In this document: positions 8,619 through 26,269 of the stretch, piece by piece
Layout: each line of letters opens with the position of its first letter
How positions within the stretch are numbered: position 1 is the stretch's first letter
Origin: Promethearchaeota archaeon
Lineage (GTDB): Archaea > Asgardarchaeota > Lokiarchaeia > Sigyniarchaeales > SOKP01
NCBI GenBank assembly: GCA_008080735.1
Contig: SHMW01000004.1
Span: forward strand, 32,001 to 96,000
Length of the DNA: 64,000 nt
Direction of reading: 5' to 3'
Program-made: the position numbers and the translations under genes
Notes under the pieces: model-generated
Databases searched by the model: none
Seen by the model: the letters and a program-made list of their open reading frames with translations, nothing else
What the model was told of the DNA's origin: nothing

Positions 8619-10133
8619 TTATGGTAGAGCTAATCTACCTGGATGCATTATCATATTAGGATCAACAAGCTTTTTGAAAGCCCTCAAATATTTCCAGTAC
8701 ATTGCTGCATCATAGTACGCTTGAATATGGATATATGGATCTGGTCTGTAATTTAACCAGCCTTGCTTTAATCCGTATTCTGTGGTTTCTCTGTTCAGAT
8801 CTTGGACTTTTTCGAACTCCTTCGGGTCTGTGCTGTCGAAACAGATGATTGGCATACAAATCGCTTGGCGACATCGCTCGATAGACGCAATCCACATTTC
8901 CAGGTGCATCTTGAGGTAAGATGCGATAACTGGTGGAAAGTCGTATTTCTCCATCGCGGCATTATACATCTCGGCGAAGTGAGCACATTCATTCCATGGT
9001 GTGTACCACGTAATAAATAGGAAGCCCGCTTCCCAGAAGCTATACGGAATCGCTATTTTATTCGGTTTCTTCATTCTGCTCTCGATCTGCTTCGGATGTA
9101 ATTCCCACGGTCGCATCGCATCACCGTCTTTCGCTCGATTGGCAGCATAATCCTTACAATGGTTATTAATAGTATCAACAACATGCTCTAACTCTTTCTC
9201 TGATTGTGCCCAGCATTCCCAGTTCATCCACCACTCCGGAATACCAATCTTCTCAAAGAAAGCATATTCGTGAGGAATCTTATCTTTCGGCCATCGAGTC
9301 ATGACTAAGGGATAATTTCCCCCTTGTACCATAACGGTATTGTGAGCAACGCCAAATTCTTTCATACCTAATTCGAGCGTGACATCCTGCATATCATATG
9401 GGTTTGACATACCCCATGCGACCACAGTTTTTGCGTCTGGATGAGGATAAATCTTGACAGCAGCTTTCGTGACAACTCCTAATGCTCCTTGGGAGCCCAT
9501 CAAAAAGGACCACATGTCAGGCCCCAAACCATATTTATAGAACGGTTTTGCGCCTGGAAGAGCCCAAGAGCCAGTTTTTACGACATCACCATTTGGGAAC
9601 ACAATCTCGGCGCACATGAAATTGTCGCCTTGAGGTCCGACCGATGATGTATATAAGGAAAACCCTCTGTCAATCGCATCGCCCATAACGGTCGCCGCGG
9701 GAGGAGCTCCATCCGCGATTGGAGGTGCCCAATCAGGGTGGTTCTTATGCATATATGCCCAGAGCTGCCCGTTCGTGACGCCTGGTTCAATGATCGCATA
9801 ACGATTATCTTCATCGATTTCCAGAATTCTGTCCATCCGTCCTAAATCGAGCATAACGCCCGCTGGTTTAATAGTCGGGCATGCAAACCCTCCGGAGAGT
9901 CCCGCTGAAATGGGAGAGACGGCGATCTTCTCATCAGAACAGTATAAGAGAATCTTTCTGATTTCTTCGACGTATTTGGGTCGCAGTACGACATCAGGAA
10001 TCTGACTTTCCAAGCCCATGACGGATTTTGCGAGGTAGGACGCGGTGATGGCTTCATCCATCGTGGCGTATTCCTTCCCGACGATACCCTCGAAGGCTTG
10101 GAGGTCTTTTTCGGTTGGTGCTTTATAACTCAT
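8619..10133 (-). CDS. FAD-binding oxidoreductase (GlcD/VAO-PCMH family); contains a putative in-frame 30-nt intron
   Basis: PDVVLRP, LDLGRMDRILEID, IEPGVT, GSQGALGVVTKAAVK, DPNMIMHPG; 494 aa if 8898-8927 is removed. Confidence 0.85.
   Translation of the reverse strand: MSYKAPTEKDLQAFEGIVGKEYATMDEAITASYLAKSVMGLESQIPDVVLRPKYVEEIRKILLYCSDEKIAVSPISAGLSGGFACPTIKPAGVMLDLGRMDRILEIDEDNRYAIIEPGVTNGQLWAYMHKNHPDWAPPIADGAPPAATVMGDAIDRGFSLYTSSVGPQGDNFMCAEIVFPNGDVVKTGSWALPGAKPFYKYGLGPDMWSFLMGSQGALGVVTKAAVKIYPHPDAKTVVAWGMSNPYDMQDVTLELGMKEFGVAHNTVMVQGGNYPLVMTRWPKDKIPHEYAFFEKIGIPEWWMNWECWAQSEKELEHVVDTINNHCKDYAANRAKDGDAMRPWELHPKQIESRMKKPNKIAIPYSFWEAGFLFITWYTPWNECAHFAEMYNAAMEKYDFPPVIASYLKMHLEMWIASIERCRQAICMPIICFDSTDPKEFEKVQDLNRETTEYGLKQGWLNYRPDPYIHIQAYYDAAMYWKYLRAFKKLVDPNMIMHPGRLALP
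8898..8927 (-). other. putative BHB/BHL-type mRNA intron, 30 nt, in frame
   Basis: mRNA CA-CCAG-UU^A-UC-GCAUCUU-ACCUC-AAGAUGC-AC-CUGG-AA^A-UG: 4-bp central helix CCAG/CUGG, 3-nt bulges, perfect 7-bp hairpin; splicing gives P-P-V-M-W. Confidence 0.7.
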
Positions 10134-10366
10134 ATTATTCAGCTTTTTCTTTTTTTTATATAGTTAATTTTATAAACTATTAATGTTGTTTTTGAAAATT
10201 AATCGTCCTAATTAAAAATTTCTTATATGTTTTGCATAAAAAGAGTAATGGTTTCTTATAATTTCAATGATGAAGTTTTAAAAGGCGATCATTTGATTTG
10301 CTTATAAAAACTCGGAAAGGTATTTTTGAAGTTTAATACCTTTTTATGAAATTCTTTCCTAATTTC

Positions 10367-10648
10367 TCAGAAGAAAATAGATATGTGTTTATCTTTATTG
10401 ATTAAGTCCTTTTCAACAGTCATTTCTAGGGGTTCTTGATCTCTTCTTAAGGAAATATAATGTGTTTGGGCATCGACAATCTCGAGTTCCTTTCCCTCAA
10501 ATAACTGGACTAATTCCTCTAATTTATCTGCGTAAGTATCCAATTCTTTAGCTCAACCGAACAACGCGAGTTTAGCATTATCATCCGTATAACGGAGATG
10601 ATTCGCTAAATGATCACCTTGTTTCAGATGTAAAGATAAAGTATATTT
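10367..10648 (-). pseudogene. decayed paralog of the 11477..11797 hypothetical protein
   Basis: KYTLSLHLKQGDHLANHL..LALFG*AKEL aligns with EYSLFVHWKQGEHLAYYL..KAILDWDNN; TGA at 10553-10555 sits at the Trp position; no start codon of its own, in frame after the TAA of 10649..11128. Confidence 0.65.
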
Positions 10649-11128
10649 TTATTCAACAAATAAATCCTCTCTCTCATCCTTATCCAAGTAATTTTGTAAT
10701 TGTAAATGGATTAAGGCAGATGTTTTATCATAATCCTGTTCCTTAACAATTTTTCTGATTCTTTCGACTAAAAAAGGTTCGGTATATGCTCCAAATTTCC
10801 CTCTCATCATTAAACCAAACTCAGAGTCTATTATTGCATTTCTTTTACCTTTGTTCATTTTTGATAATTCGTTTATGAGGAATTTAATCATACTATATTT
10901 TTTAATAAGTGAAATCGAATCCTGTGTATCTAGGAAATCAATGAAAGAGATAGAATGTAAATCGAAAATAGTATCTAAATCTCTGTTTACAATTGCTAAT
11001 CCCAATCTTCTTAAATATTCAGACGATAATGACTCTCCAATACATCCAACAAACTCCGACTCCCAAAAACCATCTATAGGATCGTTATTTAGTGCTAAAA
11101 TGATATCAAAGAGTTTTCTATTAATCAT
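10649..11128 (-). CDS. hypothetical protein
   Basis: 159-aa ORF with protein-like composition, no recognised motif. Confidence 0.5.
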   Translation of the reverse strand: MINRKLFDIILALNNDPIDGFWESEFVGCIGESLSSEYLRRLGLAIVNRDLDTIFDLHSISFIDFLDTQDSISLIKKYSMIKFLINELSKMNKGKRNAIIDSEFGLMMRGKFGAYTEPFLVERIRKIVKEQDYDKTSALIHLQLQNYLDKDEREDLFVE

Positions 11129-11471
11129 CTTGAAAATATCTTTTCATTTTTCGTTCACCTAAATTTCTAATTATAGTTTCAAGAAGAATTTTATATTCAA
11201 AAGAATACCAGGAATGTAATTTATTTTCAAATTTATCTAAAAAGTTTTCTCTTAAATCATTAGTTTCAAAAATAGTCTCGATTGTGAGAATTAATATTTC
11301 ATTTTTAAGAGACTTATCCCTAATCTTATATCTACGAGAATATCCTTCTTTGTATTCTTCAAACGGTCATAGAGTTTCCCTAATCTCAAATAAAAAATCT
11401 ATTAATTCATCATTTTTTTCAATAGAATCCAATCTTTCTTGTAAAGCCTTTATACACAATTTAAAATTCAT
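11121..11471 (-). pseudogene. hypothetical ORF interrupted by one in-frame TGA
   Basis: MNFKLCIKALQERLDSIEK..EIRETL*PFEEYKEG..NLGERKMKRYFQDD*; TGA at 11367-11369; fills the gap between neighbouring ORFs. Confidence 0.45.
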
Positions 11472-11476
11472 TCATT

Positions 11477-11797
11477 TCAATCCTTTTCATACTTTTTGAT
11501 GACTAAATTTTGTTTAGCGGCATCTTCTAAGGCTTTTTCATCCCCCGCTAGTATTATGGAATGATCACTGCATAGGGATATTTTTAAGTTCTTATCCTTG
11601 AATAGTCCTAACAATTTTCTGATTTTATTTGCGCTTTTTCGGAAATTATTGTCCCAATCTAGTATTGCCTTTTTGGTATCATAATCGCGTTTTTCTAAAT
11701 AGTAGGCTAGGTGCTCTCCTTGTTTCCAGTGAACAAATAATGAATATTCTTCATTTTTGGAAGTTTCTTTGTTTTCCATATTTATCTTTTTTGACAT
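11477..11797 (-). CDS. hypothetical protein
   Basis: 106-aa ORF; the local degenerate paralog at 10367-10648 supports coding status. Confidence 0.65.
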   Translation of the reverse strand: MSKKINMENKETSKNEEYSLFVHWKQGEHLAYYLEKRDYDTKKAILDWDNNFRKSANKIRKLLGLFKDKNLKISLCSDHSIILAGDEKALEDAAKQNLVIKKYEKD

Positions 11798-11892
11798 TTA
11801 TTGAATTTTGTGTTATTAAATAATAAATTAACCCTAAATATTTGTTCCATTATTTAGAACCTTCATGATTATGTGAGAACCCTTTAAAAAAA

Positions 11893-12864
11893 TTATGTCT
11901 CGTTATTGTCAAAATAATCGGTAATTTTTCTCTGAGTGAATAAGAATATGATTTCATTTTTAATATCACTTATCCTTCCGGTAATTGTCTCCGTATTCCT
12001 TAGAATAATTCTAAAATGATTTATTCCTAATTTTCTTATAATTTCTGGAATTTCAATCTTTTCATGAATTTCTTCAGCTAAAAAGTGCAGGAACATTCGA
12101 ACTTTCGATCTTAGTGCTTCTTTTTCTTGTCTCCCAATATTAATTTCTCTACAATTATGTCTTAAAATATAATTAATAAATTCCATAACTCTAAAGTCTG
12201 TATCTTTTTCTTTTATCTTCCTTGAAATTATGAACTGTAAAAAGGAGTTAGTCAAAATAATGCCCGCATTTCTCTCAATATTTATTTTCCCATCCTTAGT
12301 TCCTGAAATGTCTAATATATCATCTAAAAGAAACGGAATGTAAACTTTTTCCCAAATATCATTCTGATTTGATATTTCCATCAAATTGTTTATATATTTA
12401 TGGTTTAAGGTTCCCTCTTTTACATTTAGCTCAAAAAACTTTTTGTTTTTTAAATCTATACAATATACATTTACTGGTTTTAAAATTGGAACAGTATCTA
12501 TTATTTTTAAAATAATATCTTCAGGTGAGTTATAAAATACATAATCTATGAAGACTTCTGCTTTAGAATTTACTGGAATTAGAGTGCTATCAAAATTCTT
12601 TACTTGAATTTGCAAATAGTTCTTATATTGAGGTTTTATGCTATTATTTATATCATTTTTTGAAAAAATGGTTCTTTTTTTAAATTCAAAAATTAAATAG
12701 AAATTAATCCCTTCGAGTTCATAATAACCTATAAAATCAGGTTTTACAGTACTTTCGTTACTTAATTCAATATCTAATTCAAAAACGCCCTTGATTAACC
12801 CTCCTACGGATTTCATCGCCGCTATAAGGAAATTGATGACTTTAGTTTGGTCCGACAATCTCAT
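11893..12864 (-). CDS. putative PD-(D/E)xK nuclease with C-terminal PIP box
   Basis: KPDFIG...IFEFKK motif; C-terminal QRKITDYF fits Qxx[ILM]xx[FY][FY]. Confidence 0.55.
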   Translation of the reverse strand: MRLSDQTKVINFLIAAMKSVGGLIKGVFELDIELSNESTVKPDFIGYYELEGINFYLIFEFKKRTIFSKNDINNSIKPQYKNYLQIQVKNFDSTLIPVNSKAEVFIDYVFYNSPEDIILKIIDTVPILKPVNVYCIDLKNKKFFELNVKEGTLNHKYINNLMEISNQNDIWEKVYIPFLLDDILDISGTKDGKINIERNAGIILTNSFLQFIISRKIKEKDTDFRVMEFINYILRHNCREINIGRQEKEALRSKVRMFLHFLAEEIHEKIEIPEIIRKLGINHFRIILRNTETITGRISDIKNEIIFLFTQRKITDYFDNNET

Positions 12865-12865
12865 A

Positions 12866-13942
12866 TTAATTCGCTAGGTTAATGTTTTCATTATCAACTT
12901 CTAATTCAATATTCGGGTCTAGGTGTGTTTGGAGATTAGAAAATAAACGCAATATGATGTTTCCACATGAATCACTATTTAAATTGATAAAAAGTTTATC
13001 CATGAAAATTTGTAATGTGAATCTTCCACCTGTATGTTCATCGATACAATTATATAATATAAAATCTTTCTCCCGAACTTGCTCAAAAATGATAATCTTA
13101 AATATTTTACGATTTTTCATTAATATCTTATAAATTTTTTGGGGATCTATTGCTGTCTTCAGTTGAATCCTATATAATTGACCTTTTAATTCACGCCAAT
13201 CCGTACGATAATTTTCTATTAATTCGATCTTTGAGTTATAATCATCTCTTATTAGTTCAATAAAGTCTAGATGTTTGTGAAAATCATATCCCTTATTGAT
13301 CGTGAACCTTCCATTTCTATAAAAATCTTCTTTTATAATTATTTCTTTATCGATATCTTCAAAAACGTAATTTAATGAATTAAAATTTATGGGTAAATTG
13401 ATATTGTCTATGAAATATTGCATACTATTAGCTTGCTTTGGCCATAACCTCATTGTGTAATTCAAAAGCTTTTCTTTTATGGGATCTCCCTCATCAAAGA
13501 AAAGTTGTTTAAATTTTATACTTACCCCCATTGAATCAGAACTATATATTTTCCAATATTTTGTAAGCATCTGATTTGTTAAATATATTCTATCTTGAAG
13601 ATAACTATTCCAAAATAAATCTTCAATTTTTGATTTTATTATTTTTTGAGATTCGATATTATGTAAAATCCAAAATCTATGGTTTGTAGTATCAGCATAT
13701 ATAAAATAATCTTCATTATTTGGTGATTTTATTAACACATTGAAAAAGTTTTCCTCTTTGGAAGGAATAATTGTAATCTTATCATACCTATTTCCAAATT
13801 CCTCAATAGAATCAAAATTCGACTCAATAATATTTCCTTTAATTTGATTTTGAATTCGTTCTTCATCTGAATATTCATTTTTTAGCACAGATTCAAAATA
13901 TTGGTACCAATCCGATTTGTATTCAAAAATCTTATCCATCAT
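12866..13942 (-). CDS. hypothetical protein, tightly coupled to the nuclease gene
   Basis: 358-aa ORF in very AT-rich DNA, 1-nt gap to the next ATG; C-terminal DEHTGG..SCGNIILRLFSNLQ. Confidence 0.7.
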   Translation of the reverse strand: MMDKIFEYKSDWYQYFESVLKNEYSDEERIQNQIKGNIIESNFDSIEEFGNRYDKITIIPSKEENFFNVLIKSPNNEDYFIYADTTNHRFWILHNIESQKIIKSKIEDLFWNSYLQDRIYLTNQMLTKYWKIYSSDSMGVSIKFKQLFFDEGDPIKEKLLNYTMRLWPKQANSMQYFIDNINLPINFNSLNYVFEDIDKEIIIKEDFYRNGRFTINKGYDFHKHLDFIELIRDDYNSKIELIENYRTDWRELKGQLYRIQLKTAIDPQKIYKILMKNRKIFKIIIFEQVREKDFILYNCIDEHTGGRFTLQIFMDKLFINLNSDSCGNIILRLFSNLQTHLDPNIELEVDNENINLAN

Positions 13943-14189
13943 AAATTTTAAATTTTGTTATTTTTGATCATTTAAAAGGATCTTTTCTATTTAGATATTG
14001 AGGGTGTAATAAGATATGAATTTATTATTAGAAAAGAAGATTTTTATTATAAATATATATGAAAATTCAGAGGTATGTATAGTTATTTTTTAATTTTTCC
14101 CAAGGAAAACGAATTTTTCCTCCGCATCGATTAATTCATGTTCCATTCTTCCTTAGTGAAACTGGGCTGTTGCATTTTTCGCGCTCAAC

Positions 14190-14324
14190 CTATTCCATCA
14201 TCTTGTACAAGGAAACGCCCGGCATGGTAGCTGCTTCAGCCAAGCTCACAAGACCTTTCTGATATAACATAACCGCTTCATTCATTTTACATTCTGAAAT
14301 TTGTTTAAGCAAGAATTTACGCAT
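14190..14324 (-). pseudogene. UPF0175-family (antitoxin-like HTH) remnant
   Basis: MRKFLLKQISECKMNEAVMLYQKGLVSLAEAATMPGVSLYKMME*; matches the AV.LY..G..SL..AA...G.S pattern; premature TAG followed by a decayed tail. Confidence 0.6.
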
Positions 14325-14700
14325 CTCTTTTATTTTTTATTCCTAATCTAAATTATACAATTTTTAAAACACAAAATCCAATTTATCTCTACGTATTAAC
14401 ATAATGTAATATTTTGTCTAATCTCTTGAAATAAAAAATCGGATAAATTAAAGTATTTGACGTTTCATCAGATAATAGAGTAAGAAGTTAAGAATTCCCC
14501 CAATAATCCCCGCATAAAAGCCCGTATCGAACCACCAATCGGTAGCATCAATTCCAATTTTTCTCATATTTTCGAATATAATCGTCGAAATATATTGATA
14601 ATTATGAAATCTCAGCAAAAAATACCCCATATTCTTTTATTATCACTATCTTTATATAGGTTTGAGAGTTTTATCATAATAAGACGTTCCACGCTAGGGG

Positions 14701-16440
14701 TTGGATTGTATGGTATTTCGGGAAAAACAATATGAAATGATTTTATCGCAGATCATCGATAAGTTCTCCAAAATTAATGGAGAAGCGGAAGAGAGACCTG
14801 AGAACAAAAAAATTTCCAAGAAATTAAACGAATTAAAACTGATTTTAAAATCCCTAAGAAATAATCCCGGGAAAAATCCATTAGAGGTAATTCAAACCAT
14901 TAAAAATAGAATAAACAACGACTCAATAATTCCACAATTATCCGGAAACGACTATTTTCAGTGGATCATAAATAATATGGATGATATCGTCTCAATTTTT
15001 GACAGTAATTTAAATTTAGAATTTATAAATAATGCTCAAGAGCGCTATTCTGGATTTACTAAAGAAGAAATTGTTGGAAAAAACACTGCTAGATATATTC
15101 ATCCCGATGACCAATTTAAAGTGCTTTCCGTGCTCAAAAATTCGTATAAGAAGGGTTATGGAGAAGCGGAATATCGTATGAGAACTAAGGAGGGGAAATA
15201 TGTGTGGTTACACGGTAAGGGACATTTGGTTAAAAAAGGTGGAAAAACCAAAATAATCATCATAGGAAGAGACATCACGCAGAGAAAGAAGTTGGAAAAC
15301 CAGTTAACGCATTGGAATAAGAAACTTGAAGAAAGGGTCGAAAGACGCACGAGGAGACTGAAAGAATCGCAAGAAAAATACAAGATCCTCACTGAAAACG
15401 TAAGTGATTTGATTATGAGTATTGATTCAAATCTTAATATAGACTACTTCAACCATCAAATTCATAAAGAAATATTAGGATATAAAGAAGACGAGTTAAT
15501 GAATGAACCAGTATCCAATATTCTACATCCAGAAGAATATCAAAAAGCTTTAGATACAGTTAAACAAACTTTTGAAAATGGTAGTGGTAAACTCGAATTT
15601 CGAGTCAAGCATAAGAATGGCAACTTTTTGTGGTTTGAGTCAAAAGCAAGGAGATATACTAATGAGGAGGGGGAGAGAAAAGTTATAGTCATATCTCGAG
15701 ATATAACCAAAAGAAGAGAGTTTGAGCACCAATTAAAAGAACTGAATAAACTGAAGTCAGATCTCCTCAGACGGGCTTCTCATGAATTAAAAACCCCTTT
15801 AGTCGCAATCAAAGGATATACGAATTTCCTATTGGAAAATTATAGCCAGTTTACGCATGATGATATAATTGATGTCTTGACTCAAATTCGCTCTGGTGCA
15901 GAGAGATTACAAGATCTCATCAATGAGATTTTAAAAGCATCTAAACTTGAATTAAAGGCAGATTCATTCCACCCAGAATATGAGGACCTTACATTTTTGA
16001 TACAGTTTGTTATTGATGAATTACAAGGATATATCCGCACTCGTCAGCATCAATTAGAGGTTAATCTTCACGAGGATTTAAGAGTAAAATGTGAAAAAGA
16101 AAAGATCTATGAGGTTTTTACAAATCTCTTATCAAATGCGATAAAATATACCCCGAAAAGGGGAAAAATCACGGTCAAATCACAAAAACTTGAAGATAAA
16201 ATTATTATAAGTGTCAAGGATACGGGTATTGGATTTACTCAAAACGAAAAGAAGCAAATATTTAAGAAATTTGGTAAGATTGAAAGATATGGGAATGGTT
16301 ATGATATAGAAATTGATGGTCATGGATTAGGCTTATATAATTCTAAGAAATTAATTGAATTACATGGCGGAGAATTATGGATGAAATCTCCTGGTAGAAA
16401 TAGAGGATCAACATTCTACTTTTCTCTACCGAGGAGCTGA
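14701..16440 (+). CDS. PAS/PAC sensor histidine kinase
   Basis: Two PAS-PAC repeats (IHPDD, LHPEE, RDIT), H-box ASHELKTPL, N-box NLLSNAIKY, DTGIG, GHGLGL. Confidence 0.95.
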   Translation: MDCMVFREKQYEMILSQIIDKFSKINGEAEERPENKKISKKLNELKLILKSLRNNPGKNPLEVIQTIKNRINNDSIIPQLSGNDYFQWIINNMDDIVSIFDSNLNLEFINNAQERYSGFTKEEIVGKNTARYIHPDDQFKVLSVLKNSYKKGYGEAEYRMRTKEGKYVWLHGKGHLVKKGGKTKIIIIGRDITQRKKLENQLTHWNKKLEERVERRTRRLKESQEKYKILTENVSDLIMSIDSNLNIDYFNHQIHKEILGYKEDELMNEPVSNILHPEEYQKALDTVKQTFENGSGKLEFRVKHKNGNFLWFESKARRYTNEEGERKVIVISRDITKRREFEHQLKELNKLKSDLLRRASHELKTPLVAIKGYTNFLLENYSQFTHDDIIDVLTQIRSGAERLQDLINEILKASKLELKADSFHPEYEDLTFLIQFVIDELQGYIRTRQHQLEVNLHEDLRVKCEKEKIYEVFTNLLSNAIKYTPKRGKITVKSQKLEDKIIISVKDTGIGFTQNEKKQIFKKFGKIERYGNGYDIEIDGHGLGLYNSKKLIELHGGELWMKSPGRNRGSTFYFSLPRS

Positions 16441-16557
16441 AATCTGTTTAATTTCAATTTTTTCTGTTTTCAGCCTTTTATAATATTCAATTTAGGTTTA
16501 TATATTTTCATTCCTTACCTAAAAAGGTGAAAATACTAAATTTTTCCTAAGAAGAAA

Positions 16558-18180
16558 ATGACCAAATCACAGTTTGATTGTATAATTATTGGGGGTGGTG
16601 CCACCGGAGCTGGTATAGCAAGGGATCTTAGCTTGAGAGGATTGAAAGTGTGTTTAGTGGAGAAGAAAGATCTAAGTGAAGGTACCACTGGTCGTTGTCA
16701 TGCGATGCTTCATTCTGGTGGGAGATATGTGTATAAGGATAAGGTTGCTGCCACCGAATGTGCCGAAGAAAGTGAAATTCTATTGAAAATTGCGCCCCAT
16801 ATCACTGAATTATGCGGAGGATATTTTGTTGCGGTAGATGACGAAGATGTAGAATATGGGAATATCTTTCGAGAAAGTTGTAAAAAGGCAAAGGTTTGGT
16901 GCGAGGAAATGTCTCCCCAAGAGTTTTTACAAGAGGAGCCGAAATGTAATGAAAATATAAAACGAGTATTTAAAGTTAAAGATGGATATATAGACCCATT
17001 CTTACTTACAATTTATAATGCCTATGACGCTAAACTTAACGGCGCGGAAATCCGTACATATTCAAAGGCAACTGACTTAATTTTCGAAAATGACAGAATA
17101 ATTGGAATAAAGGTTTTGGATAAGCTTCATAATACAACTTACGAACTTTATGGAAAAATCACGATTAATGCGACTGGGCCTTGGGCAGCATATTTAGAAA
17201 AAGACTTACAATTGGAAAAGAATTTAGAAATCGCGCCCACGATGGGCACTCTTTTAGTAATTAAGAATCGATTAGTTTCACACCTTATTAATCGTCTGCG
17301 AGAACCAGGCGACGGAGATATAATAGTTCCGAGTCATCAGTCCGTTATTTTAGGTACCACATCTAAACTTGTAGCTTTAGAAGAATTAGACAACTTACTC
17401 CCCGATAAAGAAGAGATAAAATATCTTTTGAATCTTGGAGAGTATTTAATCCCCTCTATTAAAGATCATCGAATAATTCGCTTCTATTCTGGTGCGCGAC
17501 CTCTCATAGCAAGCGGTGGTCCATTGCGAGAGGCTTCAAGAAAATTTGACATTATTGATTATAGCGATGAAGGATATGAAGGGTTGCTAACGATTTTTGG
17601 CGGAAAATTGACAACATATCGTCTCATGGCAGAAAAAACAGCTGATCTCATCTGCGAAAAACTCAATTATGAAGCGGAGTGTCAAACGGCTCAGAAACCA
17701 TTACCAGGAGGAGAGCAAAAGATAACTCAAAAAGTCTTCGAAAAGGAACTTAAAGTAGATGAGAAAACCGCATTTGATATGCAATATAAATGGGGTACAT
17801 ACTACAGCGATATTCTTTCTTTGTGTGAAACTTGTATGGATTCTTATACATCTCTTAATAAACCAAGAACCATCTGTGAATGTGAAAACGTGACAGAACC
17901 GGAGCTATCGTGGACAAATAAGAATTTAATGGTAAAAGTTATGGATGATTATCGTAGAAGAACTCGACAAGGAATGGGGCCTTGTCAAGGTCAATTTTGT
18001 TATTATAAATTGGCAAACTTGGAAGCAAAATGGACCGAAAAAAGTCACTCTCAAATCATGGAAGAATTAAAGACCGCACTCCAGAAAAGATGGAAAATAG
18101 AACCTTCCGCAAATGAATACCAACTTAGACAGATTAAACTAGCGAAATACGTGTATCTCTTAGGAGGGAATTTAAAATGA
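16558..18180 (+). CDS. glpA: anaerobic glycerol-3-phosphate dehydrogenase subunit A
   Basis: IIGGGATGAGIARDL, GTTGRCHAMLHSGGRY, GGKLTTYRLMAE, C-terminal CECE..RRRTRQGMGPCQG. Confidence 0.92.
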   Translation: MTKSQFDCIIIGGGATGAGIARDLSLRGLKVCLVEKKDLSEGTTGRCHAMLHSGGRYVYKDKVAATECAEESEILLKIAPHITELCGGYFVAVDDEDVEYGNIFRESCKKAKVWCEEMSPQEFLQEEPKCNENIKRVFKVKDGYIDPFLLTIYNAYDAKLNGAEIRTYSKATDLIFENDRIIGIKVLDKLHNTTYELYGKITINATGPWAAYLEKDLQLEKNLEIAPTMGTLLVIKNRLVSHLINRLREPGDGDIIVPSHQSVILGTTSKLVALEELDNLLPDKEEIKYLLNLGEYLIPSIKDHRIIRFYSGARPLIASGGPLREASRKFDIIDYSDEGYEGLLTIFGGKLTTYRLMAEKTADLICEKLNYEAECQTAQKPLPGGEQKITQKVFEKELKVDEKTAFDMQYKWGTYYSDILSLCETCMDSYTSLNKPRTICECENVTEPELSWTNKNLMVKVMDDYRRRTRQGMGPCQGQFCYYKLANLEAKWTEKSHSQIMEELKTALQKRWKIEPSANEYQLRQIKLAKYVYLLGGNLK

Positions 18181-19481
18181 ATAATGATGAAAACAGAAAG
18201 ATATTGGATGTATGTATTGTTGGAGATGGCTTTGCCGGACTCAATTGCGCCCGCCTATTAGCCAAAAAGAGTATAAAGTGTGAAATTTTTTCAAAAGGCT
18301 ATGGGGCTTCACAATTATGGGTTGGAACCTTCGATTTCTTAAATTATGAAGGAGGATCTCTTCAAAATGCTTATAGTAGATTTATTAATGATTTTCCTGA
18401 CCACCCTTATAAGTATTTATCTTATGATGAGGTAAAACAATCATTTAATGAATTTTTTCAAGAATTTCCGGGATTCAACTATTTTCTCGAGCATGACAAT
18501 TTTGTAAATAAACAGGTACTTACTCTAATTGGTAATTTAAAACCATGTATAGGAATATGGCATTCGATTTTCAATGAGTTTGATGAGTTATCTCCAGACA
18601 CTACAATTCTTTTAATAGATTTTCACGAGTTTAATAATAGTGCAATGTACTTGGTTAAAAAAGGATTGGAAAGTAAATATGAATCCATTTTTAGCATCGT
18701 CAAACTATCTTTCACGGAAGTATTGACATGTTGGGGAATTGGCAAAGATGATAAAGAGTTAGACAACTTAAGCGATTTTAGGATTGGGAATTTTTTTGAT
18801 TCTAATTATGAAAATCTTCGTCCTTTTTGTGAGTATCTTCAAGACCAAGTGAAAAAATCTTATCCTGACTTAGAACAAGGAAGGGTCAAATATATCCTAT
18901 TTCCTCCTATTCTTGGAATTGATAAAAACTCTCAGATCATAAAATCATTAGGGAAGCTTCTTGGGATTCCATGTCGAGAAGTCGTGGCATTTTCTCCATC
19001 TTTAATGTCTAAAAGGCTGATGAAAATATTTGATTCCAAAATAGATTCATATTCCATTACCCGTAATAAAAGATTGGAGCTAGTAGATTTAAAAATAGCA
19101 AAAAATGAGGGAAAAAGAGTGTGGCAGCTCATTTTTAAAAACTCTAAAGGTGATGAGAAGATAATTTTCTCAAACTATGTTATATTTGCAATAGGATCTG
19201 TTTTTAAGACGGGATTGTTTGAATCTAAGCATAATCTTGAGCTAAAGTTGAAAAATTTAGATATTCAAATTCCTAATAACTTTTCTTCGAATTTCGAGAT
19301 TCAATTCTCGAATGGAACAACAGAATCAGGACTTTTTGCTTGCGGTGCTGCTTCCTATGTATTGTGTGAGAATTTGGACGATGATCTTGAAATTAAATAC
19401 GGAGCGGGCTTGGGTCTCGCAATTTCTACTTCATTTAGAATTTCCAATTATATAAGCGATAAAGTACAAAAAGAATTTTAA
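18177..19481 (+). CDS. glpB: anaerobic glycerol-3-phosphate dehydrogenase subunit B (divergent)
   Basis: ATGA overlap with glpA, GDGFAG, TLIGNLKP, FPPILG, C-terminal FACGA..GAGLGLAIST. Confidence 0.75.
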   Translation: MNNDENRKILDVCIVGDGFAGLNCARLLAKKSIKCEIFSKGYGASQLWVGTFDFLNYEGGSLQNAYSRFINDFPDHPYKYLSYDEVKQSFNEFFQEFPGFNYFLEHDNFVNKQVLTLIGNLKPCIGIWHSIFNEFDELSPDTTILLIDFHEFNNSAMYLVKKGLESKYESIFSIVKLSFTEVLTCWGIGKDDKELDNLSDFRIGNFFDSNYENLRPFCEYLQDQVKKSYPDLEQGRVKYILFPPILGIDKNSQIIKSLGKLLGIPCREVVAFSPSLMSKRLMKIFDSKIDSYSITRNKRLELVDLKIAKNEGKRVWQLIFKNSKGDEKIIFSNYVIFAIGSVFKTGLFESKHNLELKLKNLDIQIPNNFSSNFEIQFSNGTTESGLFACGAASYVLCENLDDDLEIKYGAGLGLAISTSFRISNYISDKVQKEF

Positions 19482-19497
19482 AACGTATCTTTTTATC

Positions 19498-20298
19498 CTA
19501 TTTTACAATCCTTCTTTTGATCGCTATCTTATGCCCGATGTATGCTCCTCCAAGAGATGCGATGATAATAAAAGGCAAAAATGCTAAAATGATATAGATA
19601 AGCACCGGTTGCACAGACAAAAAGTACGTTATTATAATTATTATAAAATATATCAAGGCATTTATAAAGGATACTTTAAGATTCAGCGATAACAATCCTG
19701 AAATAAAATTTGCTATACCAAATACGATCACCAACTCCGCAAAAGAAAATAGGACTATCTGTGGTATCAAACGTGTTAAAATCTGCTCTATTGTAAAGAA
19801 GTTTGGATTTGGTGATAAAACTAAGTACTCTGTAGCAAAAATATTTAAAAGTGTAAACAAGATTGATAGTGGAGTTAATATAATCCAAGTCAATGCAAAG
19901 CGCACGGGAAGTGAATACGTGGTATAACGCTTCAGATTGGTTTGCAGTATCTCCTCGATATTACTCCTGTCTATCACTTCTAATTCATAATCAGGTGAAA
20001 ACTCATCAATAAAATCTTGTAATAAATCTTTTAAAAAGTTGCTAACCAATTCATTATTATCTTTTGAACTCACAATTGCCGCTCCGAAAATTTTTTCCTC
20101 TGGTTTTGGCTCGAGAATTAATTTATTATCCTCTCCAAGATCGACGAATTTAACCACGCTTTCAAGCGCTTCTCTGCTAAAATTCGCAACAGAGGCAAAA
20201 AAACCTATTAAAATATTATCATCATATGGTTGGTCCATAAAATTCTTCGAATATAAGAGAATGCCATTTCTTTTGAGTATATATACACTTTTTATCAT
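19498..20298 (-). CDS. longin-like N-terminal domain fused to a multi-TM membrane domain
   Basis: MIKSVYILKRNGILLYSKNF..LIGFFASVANFSRE pattern typical of longin-like domains; about 4 hydrophobic helices in the C-terminal half. Confidence 0.6.
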   Translation of the reverse strand: MIKSVYILKRNGILLYSKNFMDQPYDDNILIGFFASVANFSREALESVVKFVDLGEDNKLILEPKPEEKIFGAAIVSSKDNNELVSNFLKDLLQDFIDEFSPDYELEVIDRSNIEEILQTNLKRYTTYSLPVRFALTWIILTPLSILFTLLNIFATEYLVLSPNPNFFTIEQILTRLIPQIVLFSFAELVIVFGIANFISGLLSLNLKVSFINALIYFIIIIITYFLSVQPVLIYIILAFLPFIIIASLGGAYIGHKIAIKRRIVK

Positions 20299-20331
20299 TT
20301 TAATCCTCTTGAATATTTTTTAATGTTATTT

Positions 20332-22095
20332 TTAATATGTTAATTCTAAAAATTGAGCGACTTCTGTCAAGGATGCTCTATAACGTTTAAAACTATAAAG
20401 ATCTGGTCCAAATATATGGATTAATTTTTTTATTATCTCATTAGGCGCTTCTTTAGGAAATAGTTTGTATTTTTCGTATTTTCTTTCTTCAATTACTATT
20501 GCTGATTTCAGCTCAAATAATTTGTTAATTGCTTCAGTATTTGGATAATTCAGTTCCACGGTAATCAATTCCCCAGATTGAGGTATTTTTTCTATGAGTT
20601 CTTCTTTGGTTCCACATTCTAAACCTTTTTCTGTAATAGTTAGTACCTTATCACAATCAGAAATAATGGTTTCTGGACCGTGAACTATTAATGCTACATG
20701 AAACTCTCTTTTTACATCTTCTAAATATTTCTTAAATTTCTCGTATTGGAGCCGATTTAAAATACCCTTTGGAAGTGAGAACATAATGATATCAGGAGAT
20801 TGTATAAGAGCCCGAGCAATACAAAATAGAAAATAATCTAACGCTTTTAAATCAGATACTGTATTTTTTCTTTTATTATACACTCCCGTAATTTGAAGTG
20901 CCCTCTTCCTAAGTTGTCGTCTTTCGCGATAATCCTGTAGAAATGATACGCTTTTCCAAAAAGGTCCTTTCGTCATCCATTCATCAAACAGAGTTGTAAG
21001 CTCAGACTCTCGTAAAATATTCATAAATTCTTCTTTGCTCCGTTGTCCCTTTATCTTTGTTTCCACATTATATTTAATCGCCTTTTTCAGCTTCATGCCC
21101 GCCATTTTAGAATCAATTGCTTCAGGAACAATGAATATCTTTTCTAAATCCTCTTCAGTGGTTAACTGAATAAATTTACCGAATATTTTTATAGTACCCG
21201 AAAACTGATGGCTTTTTCCTGCGATCGTAGAAAAAAATCTCATTATATTAATCTGTTCTCTACTTGATTCTGAGGAACCTTCATATAAAATTCCTAATGA
21301 TTGTCCTCTCGTAAGCCTAAAACTTATATCTTCCAATTCATCGCTGATTGAGACATCTTCTAATAAAAGATGTTGATAATTTTTGTAAAAATTCCGAATC
21401 TCTAAAATAGATAGAATAATATCTATTAATTCCTCAATTAAATCGATAATATGAGGTGGATTTAACTCATCCCAATTTCTAATAATATCTAATTGGGAAA
21501 ACTCTTCTAGTTTTATTATTCGGGACAGAAAACGTGAGAAATTTATATTTGGTTGAAGCGGGTAATTTTCAAAATTGATATCCAATTGTACATAAAACCC
21601 TGGAAAATAAATTCTTACTCTTCGATGATAAGGTATCTGGTCGAGTTGATAATTCTCAAAATTATCATTGAGAAGTTCTAATTCTCTATCTACTTCTTTT
21701 AAATGGTGTTGAAATTCCCTCTCGATTAATTTATCAATTCTCTGAATGATTTTTCTTGGACTTATTAAACCATCCTCGTCAAAATCCGGTTCGACCAAGA
21801 TTTCATTAAAATCTACTGTCGTTTCTATTGGGGTATTGATTTTTAATAGTGGAACACCTTTTTCTAATACATCCGTGTTAGTAAAGAATAAAACCTCGAT
21901 AAAACTTTTTTTATATTCTAAATCTAAAACGGTCGCTAATCCAAAGGTCCCTTGCCGAAAGATTAACCAATATTTTTCTGAAAACCGAATTGCATCAGTT
22001 ATTTTTTTTCTGAGAATTTCTAATTCTTCTTTCCTTGTTCTACTCAATTTCTGGCACCTCCATTGCTCTAAATCTAAAGTATTGTTCCATAACAC
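20332..22095 (-). CDS. degenerate ABC ATPase-like protein with N-terminal UBC/RWD-like region
   Basis: ISFRLTRGQSLGI, IARALIQSPDIIMF, CDKVLTI, but Walker A/B and signature motifs lost; VQLDINFENYPLQPNINFS..NWDELNPPHIIDLIEEL; true start probably the TTG near 22047. Confidence 0.65.
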   Translation of the reverse strand: MLWNNTLDLEQWRCQKLSRTRKEELEILRKKITDAIRFSEKYWLIFRQGTFGLATVLDLEYKKSFIEVLFFTNTDVLEKGVPLLKINTPIETTVDFNEILVEPDFDEDGLISPRKIIQRIDKLIEREFQHHLKEVDRELELLNDNFENYQLDQIPYHRRVRIYFPGFYVQLDINFENYPLQPNINFSRFLSRIIKLEEFSQLDIIRNWDELNPPHIIDLIEELIDIILSILEIRNFYKNYQHLLLEDVSISDELEDISFRLTRGQSLGILYEGSSESSREQINIMRFFSTIAGKSHQFSGTIKIFGKFIQLTTEEDLEKIFIVPEAIDSKMAGMKLKKAIKYNVETKIKGQRSKEEFMNILRESELTTLFDEWMTKGPFWKSVSFLQDYRERRQLRKRALQITGVYNKRKNTVSDLKALDYFLFCIARALIQSPDIIMFSLPKGILNRLQYEKFKKYLEDVKREFHVALIVHGPETIISDCDKVLTITEKGLECGTKEELIEKIPQSGELITVELNYPNTEAINKLFELKSAIVIEERKYEKYKLFPKEAPNEIIKKLIHIFGPDLYSFKRYRASLTEVAQFLELTY

Positions 22096-25000
22096 TGTCC
22101 GATTGCTTTAATCCAAGTATACTGTTTTCTCCAAACGTTTTTTCTAGCTCCTCGCGAACTTCATTCAAATTAAGGTTCGTGAGCAATGCAAAATCCGTCC
22201 CTACCTTATTTTCCAATGCCTTGTCTATTCCTTCAATTTTCTCTAATCTCTCAACAGCATCTTCTTGAATATCGTAGAAGAAAAGCTCAATAGTTCTCCC
22301 ATCACCGGGTAATTGAGACAATAGTTGTCTAGGCGTGCCAAAATCGATCATACCCCTTCCTCTTCCAAATACAACTACTTTATTACAGAATCGTGATTCT
22401 TCAGGATAATGACTGATTACTATTAAGGTGGTATTATATTTCTCATTAATTTGAGTAAGTGCGAGCCATAAATTCTCACGCACAACTGGGTCTAAGCCCG
22501 AAGTAGGCTCGTCCAGTATGCAAAAGATTGGATTATGAATCAGACCCATAGCAATACTCACCCGACGCTTCTGCCCACCCGATAGATTTTTTACAAGCTC
22601 ATTCATCTTATCTTCAATTTCGAGACTTCGAAGAAGTCGTTTGGACTTGCTTACTATTTCTTTTTCGGTTAGACCATATTGCTTTCCAAAATAGATAAGG
22701 TTTTGCAGAGTAGTAAAATCAGTATAGATCTTGCCTAAATCTTGAGGAACATAACCATAAATAGGTCTAATTTTCCGTTTATTTTTTTTTACATCCATTC
22801 CATAAATTTCACATATTCCCGTATATTTGCGCATTCCTAATAAAGCTTTTACGAAGGTGGACTTACCCGCTCCACTTTCTCCTAAAACGCCCAATATCTC
22901 ACCGTGTTCTAATTCAAGCGAAACACCATCCACAATTAGTTTCTTTCCGATATAAATATCTAAATTTTCACAATAAACCGCTGAAAAACGTTTAAGATAA
23001 TTTATATTTAAATCTCCTTCTAGTCCGATCATTGACTTTAAAATTTTCATCACGCGTTCATTAAGATAAGACAATATACTGATGACGATGAAAGCTACTA
23101 TGAGCAGTGCTTCTGATATCATTAACCATATTAATAAATTACTCCACGGCAATGGATCAAATGCCTGGTCATATCGAATTTCATCTATGATCACTAAACC
23201 ATATGGCGTGTTTCTTAAATCGCCCCCAAATGATGGAATATCGCCAACCCCTCCCGTATTTAGACTAATGCATCGTCTATACCATTCGGTAAGAGTTTTG
23301 ATATCTTCGGGTTGTGAACGATATCGATATAAAGCAATCGAACCTAAATAGGTAGATATGAATGAGGAGGGTAATTCAGTTAATTGGGAAAGAAACGGGA
23401 TAATATTAAAGCTCCCCTCCTCTTTTTGGGCGCCTTTTAAAAATTCTATTGCAGCAATTTTAGAAAGAGGTTCTAAATTCAATATTTTATGAATTTCCAA
23501 TCCATAATATGTAGAGATTACATCCGAATGAAATCCGTGAATAATGGAAAATCCTCCATCGGGATTCTGTCCAGAAGAGATCCAGTGAGTAAGAGTATTT
23601 TGATCTATTAGATTAAGAGCATTTAGATCATTCAAACTTTTAATTGCCCAATAGGTACTTTCTGTGGTGGAAATATTCGTGTCAATCAGATCTTTAAGAA
23701 GTAACTCATAAGCAGGTCCGAAATATGATAAAAGTAACTCAAAATCCTCCCCAAGTTTGAATCCTCCATCCGGATTCTGTAAATTAGCTAAATAATTGAC
23801 TGTTGCGGTCACATTTGGGAGATTTTGAAGCGTATACGGTTTAAATAACTGGTATAGAAATACAGCGCAGTAAGTGGAAAATATTGATGAATTAGCTAAA
23901 GGTTGGGAGCCGAATCCCCCATCCTCGGGATTATAACACGAATTTACAAAATTTATTATGCTATTTATATCTATGTATGTTATATATTTTTCTGAATTCC
24001 AATTATAAAGAGCCAAAACGCCGAGATAATTGATTTGAAGATTCGTCTCACCGATGAGACCATTGAAGGCTTGATATTCATACAACCAATTATAATAGTT
24101 TATTTTAAAAGAATCATCAATTACTAAACTACCATTTTTTTCTAATAAAAAGATTGAATTCATTCCACCCCATCCCGATGTGAAATCGGAAACGTTTATC
24201 GCCCAATGAGGACCAAATCCGCCGTCCAAATTAGTACAATTTGTTACAAATTCTTTAGTTTGTGTTTGATTAATAAAAAAACTATTATTAAAATGATAAA
24301 TATTCCATAATGAATAATAAGTTGCCGATATGTCTGAAATCGCGGCTTGAGTAGATGATCTGAACCCCCCATCCAATGGATTATACAATAGATTATAATA
24401 TCCGAAAATTGCTAATTCTTCTGAAGAATTATATGTATACCCCATTTCTAAATACGCTCGAACGCCATAATATGTGGTTTCAGCGGTCACTGTCGTATAG
24501 GAACGATTAGAATACCTATAACTCCCAGAAAATCCTATTGAGTAGTTCCCTAACAATTTAATATAAGCGGTAATAGACGCATTATTCGTTTCGAGAATAG
24601 AGTTAGCGTTGAGTCTTTTTACGAGCTTAATTGCATAGTATGTAGAGATGATATCTGCCTCGGGGACTTCCTCATTATATTTAAATCCCATCCCCCCTTC
24701 ATCTAATGAATTATTGATGTAATCGATTGTCCGATTTATTCTATCTTGATGCTCGGGTGCATCTAAATAACTCCCGTTGAGCAAATCGATCGTTTCAATA
24801 ACCTTATATGTAGAATACATATCGCCAAGACCTCCTATATCAGAATAAGACCCATCGGGATTTTGTTTTTCAAATAAATAATCTAAGAAAAATTCCCGCT
24901 TACTCTCGCTTAGGTTGGGATTATTCACAGGATGGACAAAATGAGATGTGTTAAATAATGGACTGGAAAAATTAATGGAATCGATAGCTCGATAATTCGA

Positions 25001-25168
25001 ATCTATTGTTGGTTCTACGAACAAGTTGTCGGGATTTTGATGAGTGCCAGAAAAATACGCCATATTGTTTTTATAGCTTTTCACTTGAGCTTCACTAAAA
25101 TATTCAATAAACGGAATATTGATTAATCCTAATACAATTAATTCTCCGATGAACAACCCGATAATCAA
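22040..25168 (-). CDS. prenyltransferase/squalene-cyclase repeat domain, TM helix and ABC ATPase fusion
   Basis: Repeated QNPDGGF-like motifs, many N-x-S/T sequons, TM LLIWLMISEALLIVAFIVISIL, GESGAGKST, LSGGQ, ILDEPTSGLD; frame is open upstream to 25213. Confidence 0.88.
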   Translation of the reverse strand: MIIGLFIGELIVLGLINIPFIEYFSEAQVKSYKNNMAYFSGTHQNPDNLFVEPTIDSNYRAIDSINFSSPLFNTSHFVHPVNNPNLSESKREFFLDYLFEKQNPDGSYSDIGGLGDMYSTYKVIETIDLLNGSYLDAPEHQDRINRTIDYINNSLDEGGMGFKYNEEVPEADIISTYYAIKLVKRLNANSILETNNASITAYIKLLGNYSIGFSGSYRYSNRSYTTVTAETTYYGVRAYLEMGYTYNSSEELAIFGYYNLLYNPLDGGFRSSTQAAISDISATYYSLWNIYHFNNSFFINQTQTKEFVTNCTNLDGGFGPHWAINVSDFTSGWGGMNSIFLLEKNGSLVIDDSFKINYYNWLYEYQAFNGLIGETNLQINYLGVLALYNWNSEKYITYIDINSIINFVNSCYNPEDGGFGSQPLANSSIFSTYCAVFLYQLFKPYTLQNLPNVTATVNYLANLQNPDGGFKLGEDFELLLSYFGPAYELLLKDLIDTNISTTESTYWAIKSLNDLNALNLIDQNTLTHWISSGQNPDGGFSIIHGFHSDVISTYYGLEIHKILNLEPLSKIAAIEFLKGAQKEEGSFNIIPFLSQLTELPSSFISTYLGSIALYRYRSQPEDIKTLTEWYRRCISLNTGGVGDIPSFGGDLRNTPYGLVIIDEIRYDQAFDPLPWSNLLIWLMISEALLIVAFIVISILSYLNERVMKILKSMIGLEGDLNINYLKRFSAVYCENLDIYIGKKLIVDGVSLELEHGEILGVLGESGAGKSTFVKALLGMRKYTGICEIYGMDVKKNKRKIRPIYGYVPQDLGKIYTDFTTLQNLIYFGKQYGLTEKEIVSKSKRLLRSLEIEDKMNELVKNLSGGQKRRVSIAMGLIHNPIFCILDEPTSGLDPVVRENLWLALTQINEKYNTTLIVISHYPEESRFCNKVVVFGRGRGMIDFGTPRQLLSQLPGDGRTIELFFYDIQEDAVERLEKIEGIDKALENKVGTDFALLTNLNLNEVREELEKTFGENSILGLKQSDSVMEQYFRFRAMEVPEIE

Positions 25169-25238
25169 TAATAAATACTTGATTCGGCGTTTTTTCTTTC
25201 TGTCTATTATTATTCACCTGGTTTATGTATTGCTTTTT

Positions 25239-26269
25239 CTACTTTTCTAATAATTCTAATCTATCTTTCTCTTCCTCTCTTTTGATTCGTAATTGGAAAT
25301 AACGTCTAAAATTTGCAACATCTCTGCTCATTGCCATTATCTTGACTTCTCTTTCCAGTAAATAGTCGATAAGAGGGAGTAAATTTTCCTCGAAATCTTC
25401 TAAAAATACCTCGACTACATCATTACCTACTCGAGATACTTCTTCACAATGCTCAAAATCCGCTATTATATCAATGATCTCTCCTGTGAGGTTTTCAATC
25501 GATAATCTCGCTAGTAATCCATTGCTTGGTAGAGAGGAAATTAAATTATGGGGGGTATCGAAATCAAGTAATTTTCCTTTCCTTAAGATTGCGGTCTTAT
25601 CACAGACAAGTGCCGCCTCTAAATCATGTGTGATGATAAACATTGTAGTCCCTAGTTTTCGGTTTAATTTCTTAAGATAATTAAGGATATCATAACGCTT
25701 ATTGGCGTCTACACCTTTTATCCAAATTAATTGAGATAATTAATTTGTGTGGTAGGTTCATCTAAAAATAAGACGCCTGGATTATGAATAAGCCCTATAG
25801 CCATTGAGACTCTCTTTTTTTCTCCTCCACTAAGACTTTTTAGTGGGTTTTTCCATGTATCTTCGGGAATATCAAGTATAGAAAATAACTCTCTAGCACG
25901 TTTTCTTGCGTCCTTTTTTGTCATCCCGTAATTTGATCCGAATATTTCTACATTAACTAGCGGGGAAAGTTCATAATAGAGATTTAGTAATTCTAACTGT
26001 GGAACATAACCAATATTACTTAATATCTCAGAGTGATTTCTTTTCTTAGCAGGATTCAGACCAGTGACCATTATATCACCTGACCAATTGTTTTTCTTGA
26101 TTTGACAAGTTAGAACTCTAATTATAGTTGTCTTTCCAGCTCCAGATATTCCAAATAATCCAATTAATTCCTTTTTTTTAACATTGAAAGATACATTATG
26201 AATAATTTGAGAATCACCAAAAAACACATTAAGATTCTCAACATCAACAGATACTTGATTTAAAATCAA
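25239..26269 (-). CDS. ABC transporter ATP-binding protein interrupted by a putative 32-nt intron (join 26269-25749, 25716-25239; 332 aa)
   Basis: Exon 1 GISGAGKTT, LSGGE, LFLDEPTT; exon 2 GVDANKRYDILNYLKKLNRKLGTTMFIITHD; joins track ORFs 25727..26269 and 25239..25643. Confidence 0.9.
25717..25748 (-). other. putative BHB-type mRNA intron, 32 nt, stop-containing and frameshifting
   Basis: mRNA ACC-UACC-AC^A-CAAAUUAAUU-AUCUC-AAUUAAUUUG-GAUA-AA^A-GGU: 10-bp perfect hairpin, central helix UACC/GAUA (one C-A mismatch), two 3-nt bulges, exon helix ACC/GGU. Confidence 0.85.

Follow-up and report, generated by a model that had tools for sequence, protein, structure and literature searches.

In the XBP1/HAC1 mRNA of eukaryotes the endonuclease IRE1 cuts at twin stem-loops with 7-nucleotide (nt) loops and RtcB joins the products, the XBP1 intron being 26 nt long. 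This system is stress-regulated, and the sequence of the loop matters for recognition in IRE1/RtcB splicing. Among archaea, the pre-mRNA of the pseudouridine synthase gene cbf5 of Desulfurococcales and Sulfolobales possesses an intron of the bulge-helix-bulge (BHB) type (Yokobori et al., 2009, PMC2738675), and in the literature searched cbf5 is the only gene for which BHB introns in archaeal mRNA are described, with nothing found on mRNA introns of Asgard archaea. The tRNA genes of Asgard archaea carry heavy loads of non-canonical introns (median 22-23 nt), gained repeatedly from donors that are not identifiable, and most of the Asgard genomes concerned have two paralogues of the endonuclease EndA (preprint 10.64898/2026.10.13.758758). 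A word search of this preprint returned no "mRNA", no "hairpin" and no loop consensus, and "protein-coding" for neighbouring genes only. The same preprint cites families of tRNA introns related by transposition in Thermoproteales, with at least 80% identity (Fujishima et al., 2010). Here a window of 64,000 nt from a Loki-type Asgard archaeon (Promethearchaeota; GCA_008080735.1, contig SHMW01000004.1, positions 32,001 to 96,000) was analyzed, in which a FAD-binding oxidase gene and a gene for the ATPase of an ATP-binding cassette (ABC) transporter each possess a short insert. Both inserts are probably archaeal BHB mini-introns in mRNAs, being two instances of a class-wide build with a shared loop consensus.

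For each host gene, 60 related genomes were searched and the junctions were then aligned (see Table 1 for coordinates). The oxidase gene appears as an uninterrupted open reading frame (ORF) of 504 amino acids (aa) because its 30-nt insert, intron 1, is in frame and free of stops; the orthologs have 494-496 aa. No insert is present in 27 of 29 orthologs, where a clean 10-residue gap falls exactly at FPPV|MWIAS in the junction alignment, and these include same-genus genomes with a 94-95% identical protein. The insert was found only in this genome (G000) and in one other of the same genus (G003), and is therefore apparently a recent gain or a polymorphism. From its 5′ end, intron 1 is composed of A, UC, the stem strand GCAUCUU, the loop ACCUC, the second stem strand AAGAUGC (a 7-bp stem), AC, CUGG and AA. 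The segment CUGG pairs with the exon sequence CCAG at all four positions, flanked by the bulges UU|A and AA|A, while the intron-less relatives have CCCG, CCGG or CCAG at the position of this exon four-mer. Folding of the region gave a z of -3.1 against 200 shuffles. The introns of the two genomes differ by two substitutions, both of them synonymous and both also preserving the fold; covariation at this site is that of two sequences only, with one A-U to G.U change. An unspliced insert would encode IASYLKMHLE, and the reading frame and synonymous differences suggest that it may now and then be translated.

The FAD-oxidase gene is also a hot spot for introns, with at least 10 insertion sites across Promethearchaeota genomes (loci L002, L013, L024, L294, L323, L328, L329, L340, and L348). 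These contain BHB inserts of 29-34 nt, and some genomes have two.

Intron 2 disrupts the reading frame of the ABC ATPase gene and introduces a stop, the gene being split into ORFs at 25727-26269 and 25239-25643 of the minus strand. Excision of its 32 nt (25717-25748) fuses ...LFLDEPTT with GVDANKRY..., and orthologs have a single reading frame of 333-380 aa. There are zero extra bases between EPTT and GVD in 23 of 30 orthologs. The other seven, from five genera, have an insert of 31, 32, 33, or 34 nt at the identical point. With a length of 31, 32, or 34 nt it shifts the reading frame beside Walker B, in the Walker-B/D-loop region. Both exons nevertheless stay conserved, from which it follows that the insert has to be excised at the RNA level. 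The layout of intron 2 is A, CAAAUUAAUU, the loop AUCUC, AAUUAAUUUG, GAUA and AA, with a stem of 10 bp. In this genome UACC and GAUA form three of four pairs with one C.A mismatch (bulges AC|A and AA|A), while the exon-intron helices of the orthologs, UACC/GGUA and AACU/AGUU, have four of four each. With the BHB structure imposed on the alignment of the ABC introns (five distinct sequences), 87.6% of cells paired and 7 of 18 pairs were changed on both sides, a level reached by none of 500 shuffles. Two of the four exon-intron pairs (UACC/GGUA vs. AACU/AGUU) are among those changed on both sides, and the covariation collapses when the pairing register is slid; RNAalifold likewise showed covariation in the ABC set. 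The loops of the orthologous introns are AUCUC, AUCUA, AUUUA, and (U)AAG(A). The site-2 region gave a z of -2.1 when its fold was compared with 200 shuffles.

The 32-nt intron at this site is identical in two genomes of the same genus (L031 of G000 and L032 of G006), in which the exon-2 proteins are just 86% identical. This suggests either strong constraint across the whole intron or a recent exchange. Directly downstream of the split gene lies an ORF of 1042 aa (window 22040-25168, minus strand) in which, as read from its translation, repeats with NPDGGF-like motifs are joined to a membrane segment and to a second domain of the ABC ATPase type.

Both introns begin with A, both have an AAA 3′ bulge, and the spliced junctions FPPV|MWIAS and EPTT|GVD match the intron-less orthologs exactly (27/29 and 23/30). 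The initial annotation had described inserts of 30 and 32 nt with this anatomy, including the loops, the A start and the AAA bulges, and all of these are present on the minus strand. It had read the inserts as introns, which agrees with their absence from orthologs at the predicted junctions and with the covariation of their helices. On these comparative grounds both are identified here as introns of the endonuclease (BHB) type. The complementarity between the upstream exon and the 3′ end of the intron is that of the central BHB helix, maintained by compensatory change. A mechanism which tailors introns to new sites had also been proposed; the data contain no evidence for one and show ordinary compensatory change between exon and intron 3′ end.

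An inspection of EndA and RtcB had been recommended, and the genome was found to encode two of each (PF01974 and PF01139, respectively), all above the cut-off. In the proposed mechanism, the last four exon bases of the transcript would pair with four bases near the 3′ end of the intron, and this central helix would be bordered by the intron hairpin and by two bulges of 3 nt each. The tRNA-splicing endonuclease, probably an alpha-beta heterotetramer given the two EndA paralogues, would cut each bulge after its second base. RtcB would then ligate the exons, so that the oxidase would again read FPPV-MWIAS and the ATPase DEPTT-GVD.

Table 1. Features of the two intron-bearing genes (positions are those of the 64,000-nt window; MFE, minimum free energy).
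Feature	Position	Strand	Evidence
FAD-binding oxidase (GlcD-like), host of intron 1	8619..10133	minus	ORF list; Pfam FAD_binding_4, E 1e-20
Predicted intron 1, 30 nt	8898..8927	minus	gap in orthologs and BHB parse, 4/4 central pairs
Apical pentaloop ACCUC of intron 1	8913..8917	minus	MFE fold
Central-helix exon strand CCAG, intron 1	8930..8933	minus	pairs with intron CUGG 8900-8903
ABC-transporter ATPase exon 1, ends ...LFLDEPT-T just past Walker B	25749..26269	minus	ORF list; Pfam ABC_tran, E 5e-25
Predicted intron 2, 32 nt	25717..25748	minus	ortholog gaps, same-position inserts, covariation
Apical pentaloop AUCUC of intron 2	25733..25737	minus	folds
Central-helix exon strand UACC, intron 2	25751..25754	minus	faces intron GAUA 25719-25722
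ABC ATPase exon 2, begins (T)GVDANKRYDIL...	25239..25716	minus	translation

Structure-only descriptors were swamped by chance hairpins and gene boundaries, and therefore a catalogue of mini-introns was assembled blind to their loops. Its sources were a two-way comparison of ORFs against DNA with 2.14 Mb (58%) of the same-genus genome G005, which misses introns common to both genomes, in-genome paralogues, ortholog sets of five genes scanned for inserts against intron-less proteins, and a scan of 79 additional oxidase loci. The catalogue contains 49 distinct intron sequences from 22 sites. In this 4.1-Mb genome nine sites were verified, these being in a Rab-like GTPase, a P-loop GTPase, an acyl-CoA synthetase (ACS), a zinc-ribbon gene, a thiolase-like gene, AMP phosphorylase and a MoxR-like ATPase, together with the two in the window. 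This number does not sustain the earlier extrapolation to many introns genome-wide, the window being unusually dense rather than typical.

The catalogued introns are 29-34 nt long, with a mode of 30 nt (22 of 49). The first base is A at 19 of the 22 sites, the 3′ bulge is AAA in 31 of the 49 sequences, most stems have 8-9 pairs and a pentaloop is present at 15 of the 22 sites. Among the 27 pentaloops of the first 42 sequences, the counts by position are A 21, U 17, U 15 or C 7, U 23, and C 18 or A 7, which corresponds to a consensus of A-U-Y-U-C (Y, pyrimidine) with G nearly absent; the loop ACCUC of intron 1 matches at positions 1, 3, 4, and 5. The build of the class comprises about 30 nt with A first, an 8-9 bp stem of any sequence, an A-U-Y-U-C pentaloop, a 4-nt segment complementary to the exon and an AAA bulge. 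The comparisons support placing both window introns in a stereotyped mini-intron class that includes tRNA introns of this genome.

Some other host genes deserve mention. A translation-type GTPase (contig C123:294-318 of G000; loci L222-L238) has an intron of 29-32 nt in its P-loop, GHVDHG|KT, which is present in at least 11 of 30 related genomes. AMP phosphorylase (G000 C49:13354-14943) has a break at one common point in 11 of 38 genomes, as judged from an open frame of about 338 aa instead of about 520 aa, and both G000 (30 nt) and G005 (31 nt) are among these. The MoxR-like AAA ATPase has one 30-nt intron in G000 (C18:6311-7228), while the same gene in G005 (C10:139517-139871) has two different 31-nt introns, one of which is in Walker A (GEPG|TGKT).

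It was also considered whether the two inserts might be unspliced palindromes at the DNA level, similar to repetitive extragenic palindromic (REP) sequences or miniature inverted-repeat transposable elements (MITE), with site 1 translated as 10 residues and the ABC gene being a pseudogene or a gene in two pieces. Both are indeed near-perfect palindromes, and the in-frame, stop-free insert at site 1 with its two synonymous substitutions against G003 would suit this explanation. However, the elements are not repeated, the window inserts being single-copy in this genome, and all catalogued inserts parse as BHB structures of the sense strand. The insert boundaries are the BHB cut sites and the exon-intron helix covaries, neither of which favors a palindrome of DNA. 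Frame-breaking inserts inside the invariant motifs Walker B, P-loop and YSGGLDTS furthermore persist across genera with their flanking exons conserved, and there is an asymmetry specific to the sense strand, namely the A start, the AAA bulge and loops which end in C rather than start with G. Descriptor counts were equal on the sense and antisense strands, a point in favor of palindromes: a strict descriptor (a perfect stem of 7 bp or more, all four central-helix pairs, A as first base and AA at the end) had 9 sense, 11 antisense and 19 other matches and recovered site 1 alone. The genome-wide search of coding strands proposed in the initial annotation thus returned no excess over antisense or control, which is attributed to the low power of such a test and not to a DNA repeat. 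Taken with the other evidence, unspliced palindromes are very improbable.

Other searches of this type were similarly without signal. Combining the BHB descriptor with ORF fusion gave 1142 "frame-restoring" candidates against 1114 in a 40-nt-shifted control, an uninformative result because ordinary gene boundaries dominate. Comparing right- with wrong-frame excisions between abutting ORFs, with hairpin energies taken into account, showed no usable enrichment, as the ratio stayed near 0.5-0.6 whatever the threshold. When spliced junctions were checked against paralogues, introns on contigs C11, C43, and C4 were recovered, but most of the output was noise. RNAalifold predicted no structure for 11 GTPase introns, as their hairpins sit in differing registers. 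On inspection of the sequence, an apparent event at C42 was found to be a gene boundary, and those on C1 (near 79964) and C14 to be N-terminal or upstream regions. Three apparent 39-nt "introns" were in-frame TGA codons in HdrA-like genes. Such paralogues, on C13, C49, and C87 of G000, have the TGA in FPT-x-DCSI-(TGA)-IL, and a gene near C13 34241-34315 has CWK-(TGA)-GYGGAD, where relatives have Cys. These TGA codons look like selenocysteine codons rather than breaks.

The initial annotation had regarded TT-AYCTC-AA, the shared top of the two hairpins, as the mark of an intron family. The 9-mer TTAYCTCAA occurs four times in the window, with 3.0 expected, and only the two copies within the introns cap a hairpin. 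The others (window 36571-36579 and 48916-48924, plus strand) are not among the hairpins with this loop and are consistent with chance. Genome-wide, an AYCTC loop tops a Watson-Crick stem of 7 bp or more in five hairpins. BHB flanks are present in just three of these, namely at the two sites of the window and in a tRNA intron. As the representative loop, strict AYCUC was found at none of the 13 non-window sites, and the closing UU/AA pairs are not common to the other introns. Taken by itself, the loop AUCUC is seen twice more, once in an intron of the ACS gene in another genus and once in this genome, in the 30-nt intron of a tRNA T-loop. TT-AYCTC-AA does not therefore delimit a family.

A related explanation would derive both introns from a single mobile intron by recent copying, as in the transposition proposed for tRNA introns of Thermoproteales, with the loop as an ancestral remnant. 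Their size class and bulges are alike, the loops with their UU/AA closing pairs are near-identical, and the restriction of site 1 to two same-genus genomes would fit a recent arrival. Beyond the loop, however, there is no likeness, the stems being unrelated and identity between the sites falling short of the approximately 80% of a transposed family. BLAST with 7-nt words against the whole genome and 2.14 Mb of the congener G005 returned each window intron as a self match only, and the site-2 intron is old, being common to five genera. Almost no cross-gene intron families are seen among Asgard tRNA introns either (10.64898/2026.10.13.758758). Recent copying is thus highly unlikely. As judged from these comparisons, TT-AYCTC-AA is not a family signature and the similar hairpin tops are not marks of recent copying; the two window loops look alike because each follows the loose consensus of the class.

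This consensus was tested against a null of 4716 sense-strand hairpins in long ORFs (stem of at least 7 bp, pentaloop), using a hold-out of 13 sites with one representative each and the two window sites excluded. Position-specific bias toward A-U-Y-U-C was found in these loop-blind introns. The last loop base is C in 10/13 (null 0.145, P 8e-7), the loop ends in UC in 8/13 (null 0.048, P 3e-8), A-N-Y-U-C is matched in 6/13 (null 0.0085, P 6e-10) and the loop has no G in 12/13 (null 0.34, P 2e-5), with strict AYCUC in 0/13 (null 0.002, P 1). Four genera have the same loop, AUUUC, in the P-loop intron of the GTPase, on stems that share little. In the ACS introns it is the stem that is conserved and the loop that varies among genera; six of eight loops there end in C, a seventh is a triloop closed by G-C, and one of the eight is AUCUC. 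The earlier proposal of a conserved loop on variable stems consequently survives for A-U-Y-U-C, as with the AUUUC of the GTPase, and fails for the 9-nt motif.

It is quite unlikely that the introns are real with a merely coincidental likeness of their loops, those of the class being unconstrained. The excess of loops ending in C or UC over the null (14.5 and 4.8%, respectively), the near lack of G and the retention of AUUUC in four genera on unrelated stems all speak against this. More in keeping with coincidence are the chance frequency of the 9-mer, the absence of strict AYCUC from the hold-out, the differences among ACS loops and the drift of orthologous loops from AUCUC to AUCUA to AUUUA, while A/U-rich loops are to be expected as the genome is AT-rich. 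The loop consensus and the fixed stem length nevertheless look selected. Most likely, loop and stem would make a BHB structure that lacks a tRNA body easier to recognize or to fold, either for the splicing machinery or for an accessory protein that binds RNA. A more far-reaching suggestion, conceivable though unlikely, is that the 8-9 bp stem and G-free A-U-Y-U-C loop form a dedicated recognition module for the splicing of mRNA introns, read by an Asgard protein. Candidates for such a protein would be an EndA subunit, through its surface, or an accessory factor with RNA-binding activity, for instance an Sm-like protein with affinity for U-rich RNA. If true, the archaea most closely related to eukaryotes would possess an mRNA splicing signal encoded in sequence.

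A number of points weigh against the interpretation of both inserts as BHB mini-introns with a class-wide loop consensus. We infer the splicing of both from sequence comparison, and translation of the in-frame insert at site 1 is compatible with its synonymous differences from G003. The central helix of site 2 in this genome has only three of its four pairs, and the structure-only descriptor gave no coding-strand excess. The loops are variable, with 7 of 22 sites lacking a pentaloop, those of the ACS site varying at four of five positions and those of ABC orthologs coming to end in A. Orthologous introns are moreover non-independent in the counts, and the wider consensus was partly defined post hoc with the data already seen.

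A comparison with the tRNA introns of the same genome, also called for in the initial annotation, showed that two of these have the 30-nt, 9-bp, pentaloop build, with the loops AUCUC and AAUUA. The remaining tRNA introns are shorter and have loops of 3-4 nt. The AUCUC loop belongs to a tRNA gene of 128 nt (G000 C69:7125-7252) with a canonical 30-nt T-loop BHB intron, possessing a GUUC/GAAC helix and a 9-bp stem. The length of this gene leaves room for a second insert.

If the mini-introns are spliced as proposed, protein-only splicing of mRNA would extend from one gene (cbf5) in the literature searched to a stereotyped class in many Asgard housekeeping genes, where it often interrupts the most conserved motifs of the host gene. 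Such genes would be mis-annotated as split, as frameshifted or as having odd 10-residue insertions, and the conserved build (length, A start, AAA bulge, and loop consensus) may serve as a usable annotation model. It would also allow defined mutants for studying how tRNA-splicing enzymes recognize mRNA, and would make the gain and loss of introns tractable in the lineage that is closest to the eukaryotes.

With regard to known systems, the window introns resemble those of XBP1/HAC1 by analogy, as non-spliceosomal mRNA mini-introns that would be processed by a protein endonuclease and RtcB. They differ in that XBP1 is cut by IRE1 and is stress-regulated, whereas here a BHB is offered to EndA and regulation is not evidenced. 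They share with Asgard tRNA introns the lineage, the presumed enzymes and repeated gains without an identifiable donor, although the tRNA-intron preprint covers tRNA genes only. Unlike the Thermoproteales families, the two introns have only their architecture and a 5-nt loop consensus in common, on unrelated stems. The closest counterpart is the intron of cbf5, likewise a short BHB intron in an archaeal protein-coding mRNA, a substrate of the tRNA-splicing endonuclease and subject to gain and loss among relatives. However, that intron occurs in a single crenarchaeal gene, while those described here appear to occupy many unrelated Asgard genes, with nine sites verified in this genome, and have a stereotyped hairpin of about 30 nt with a loop consensus.

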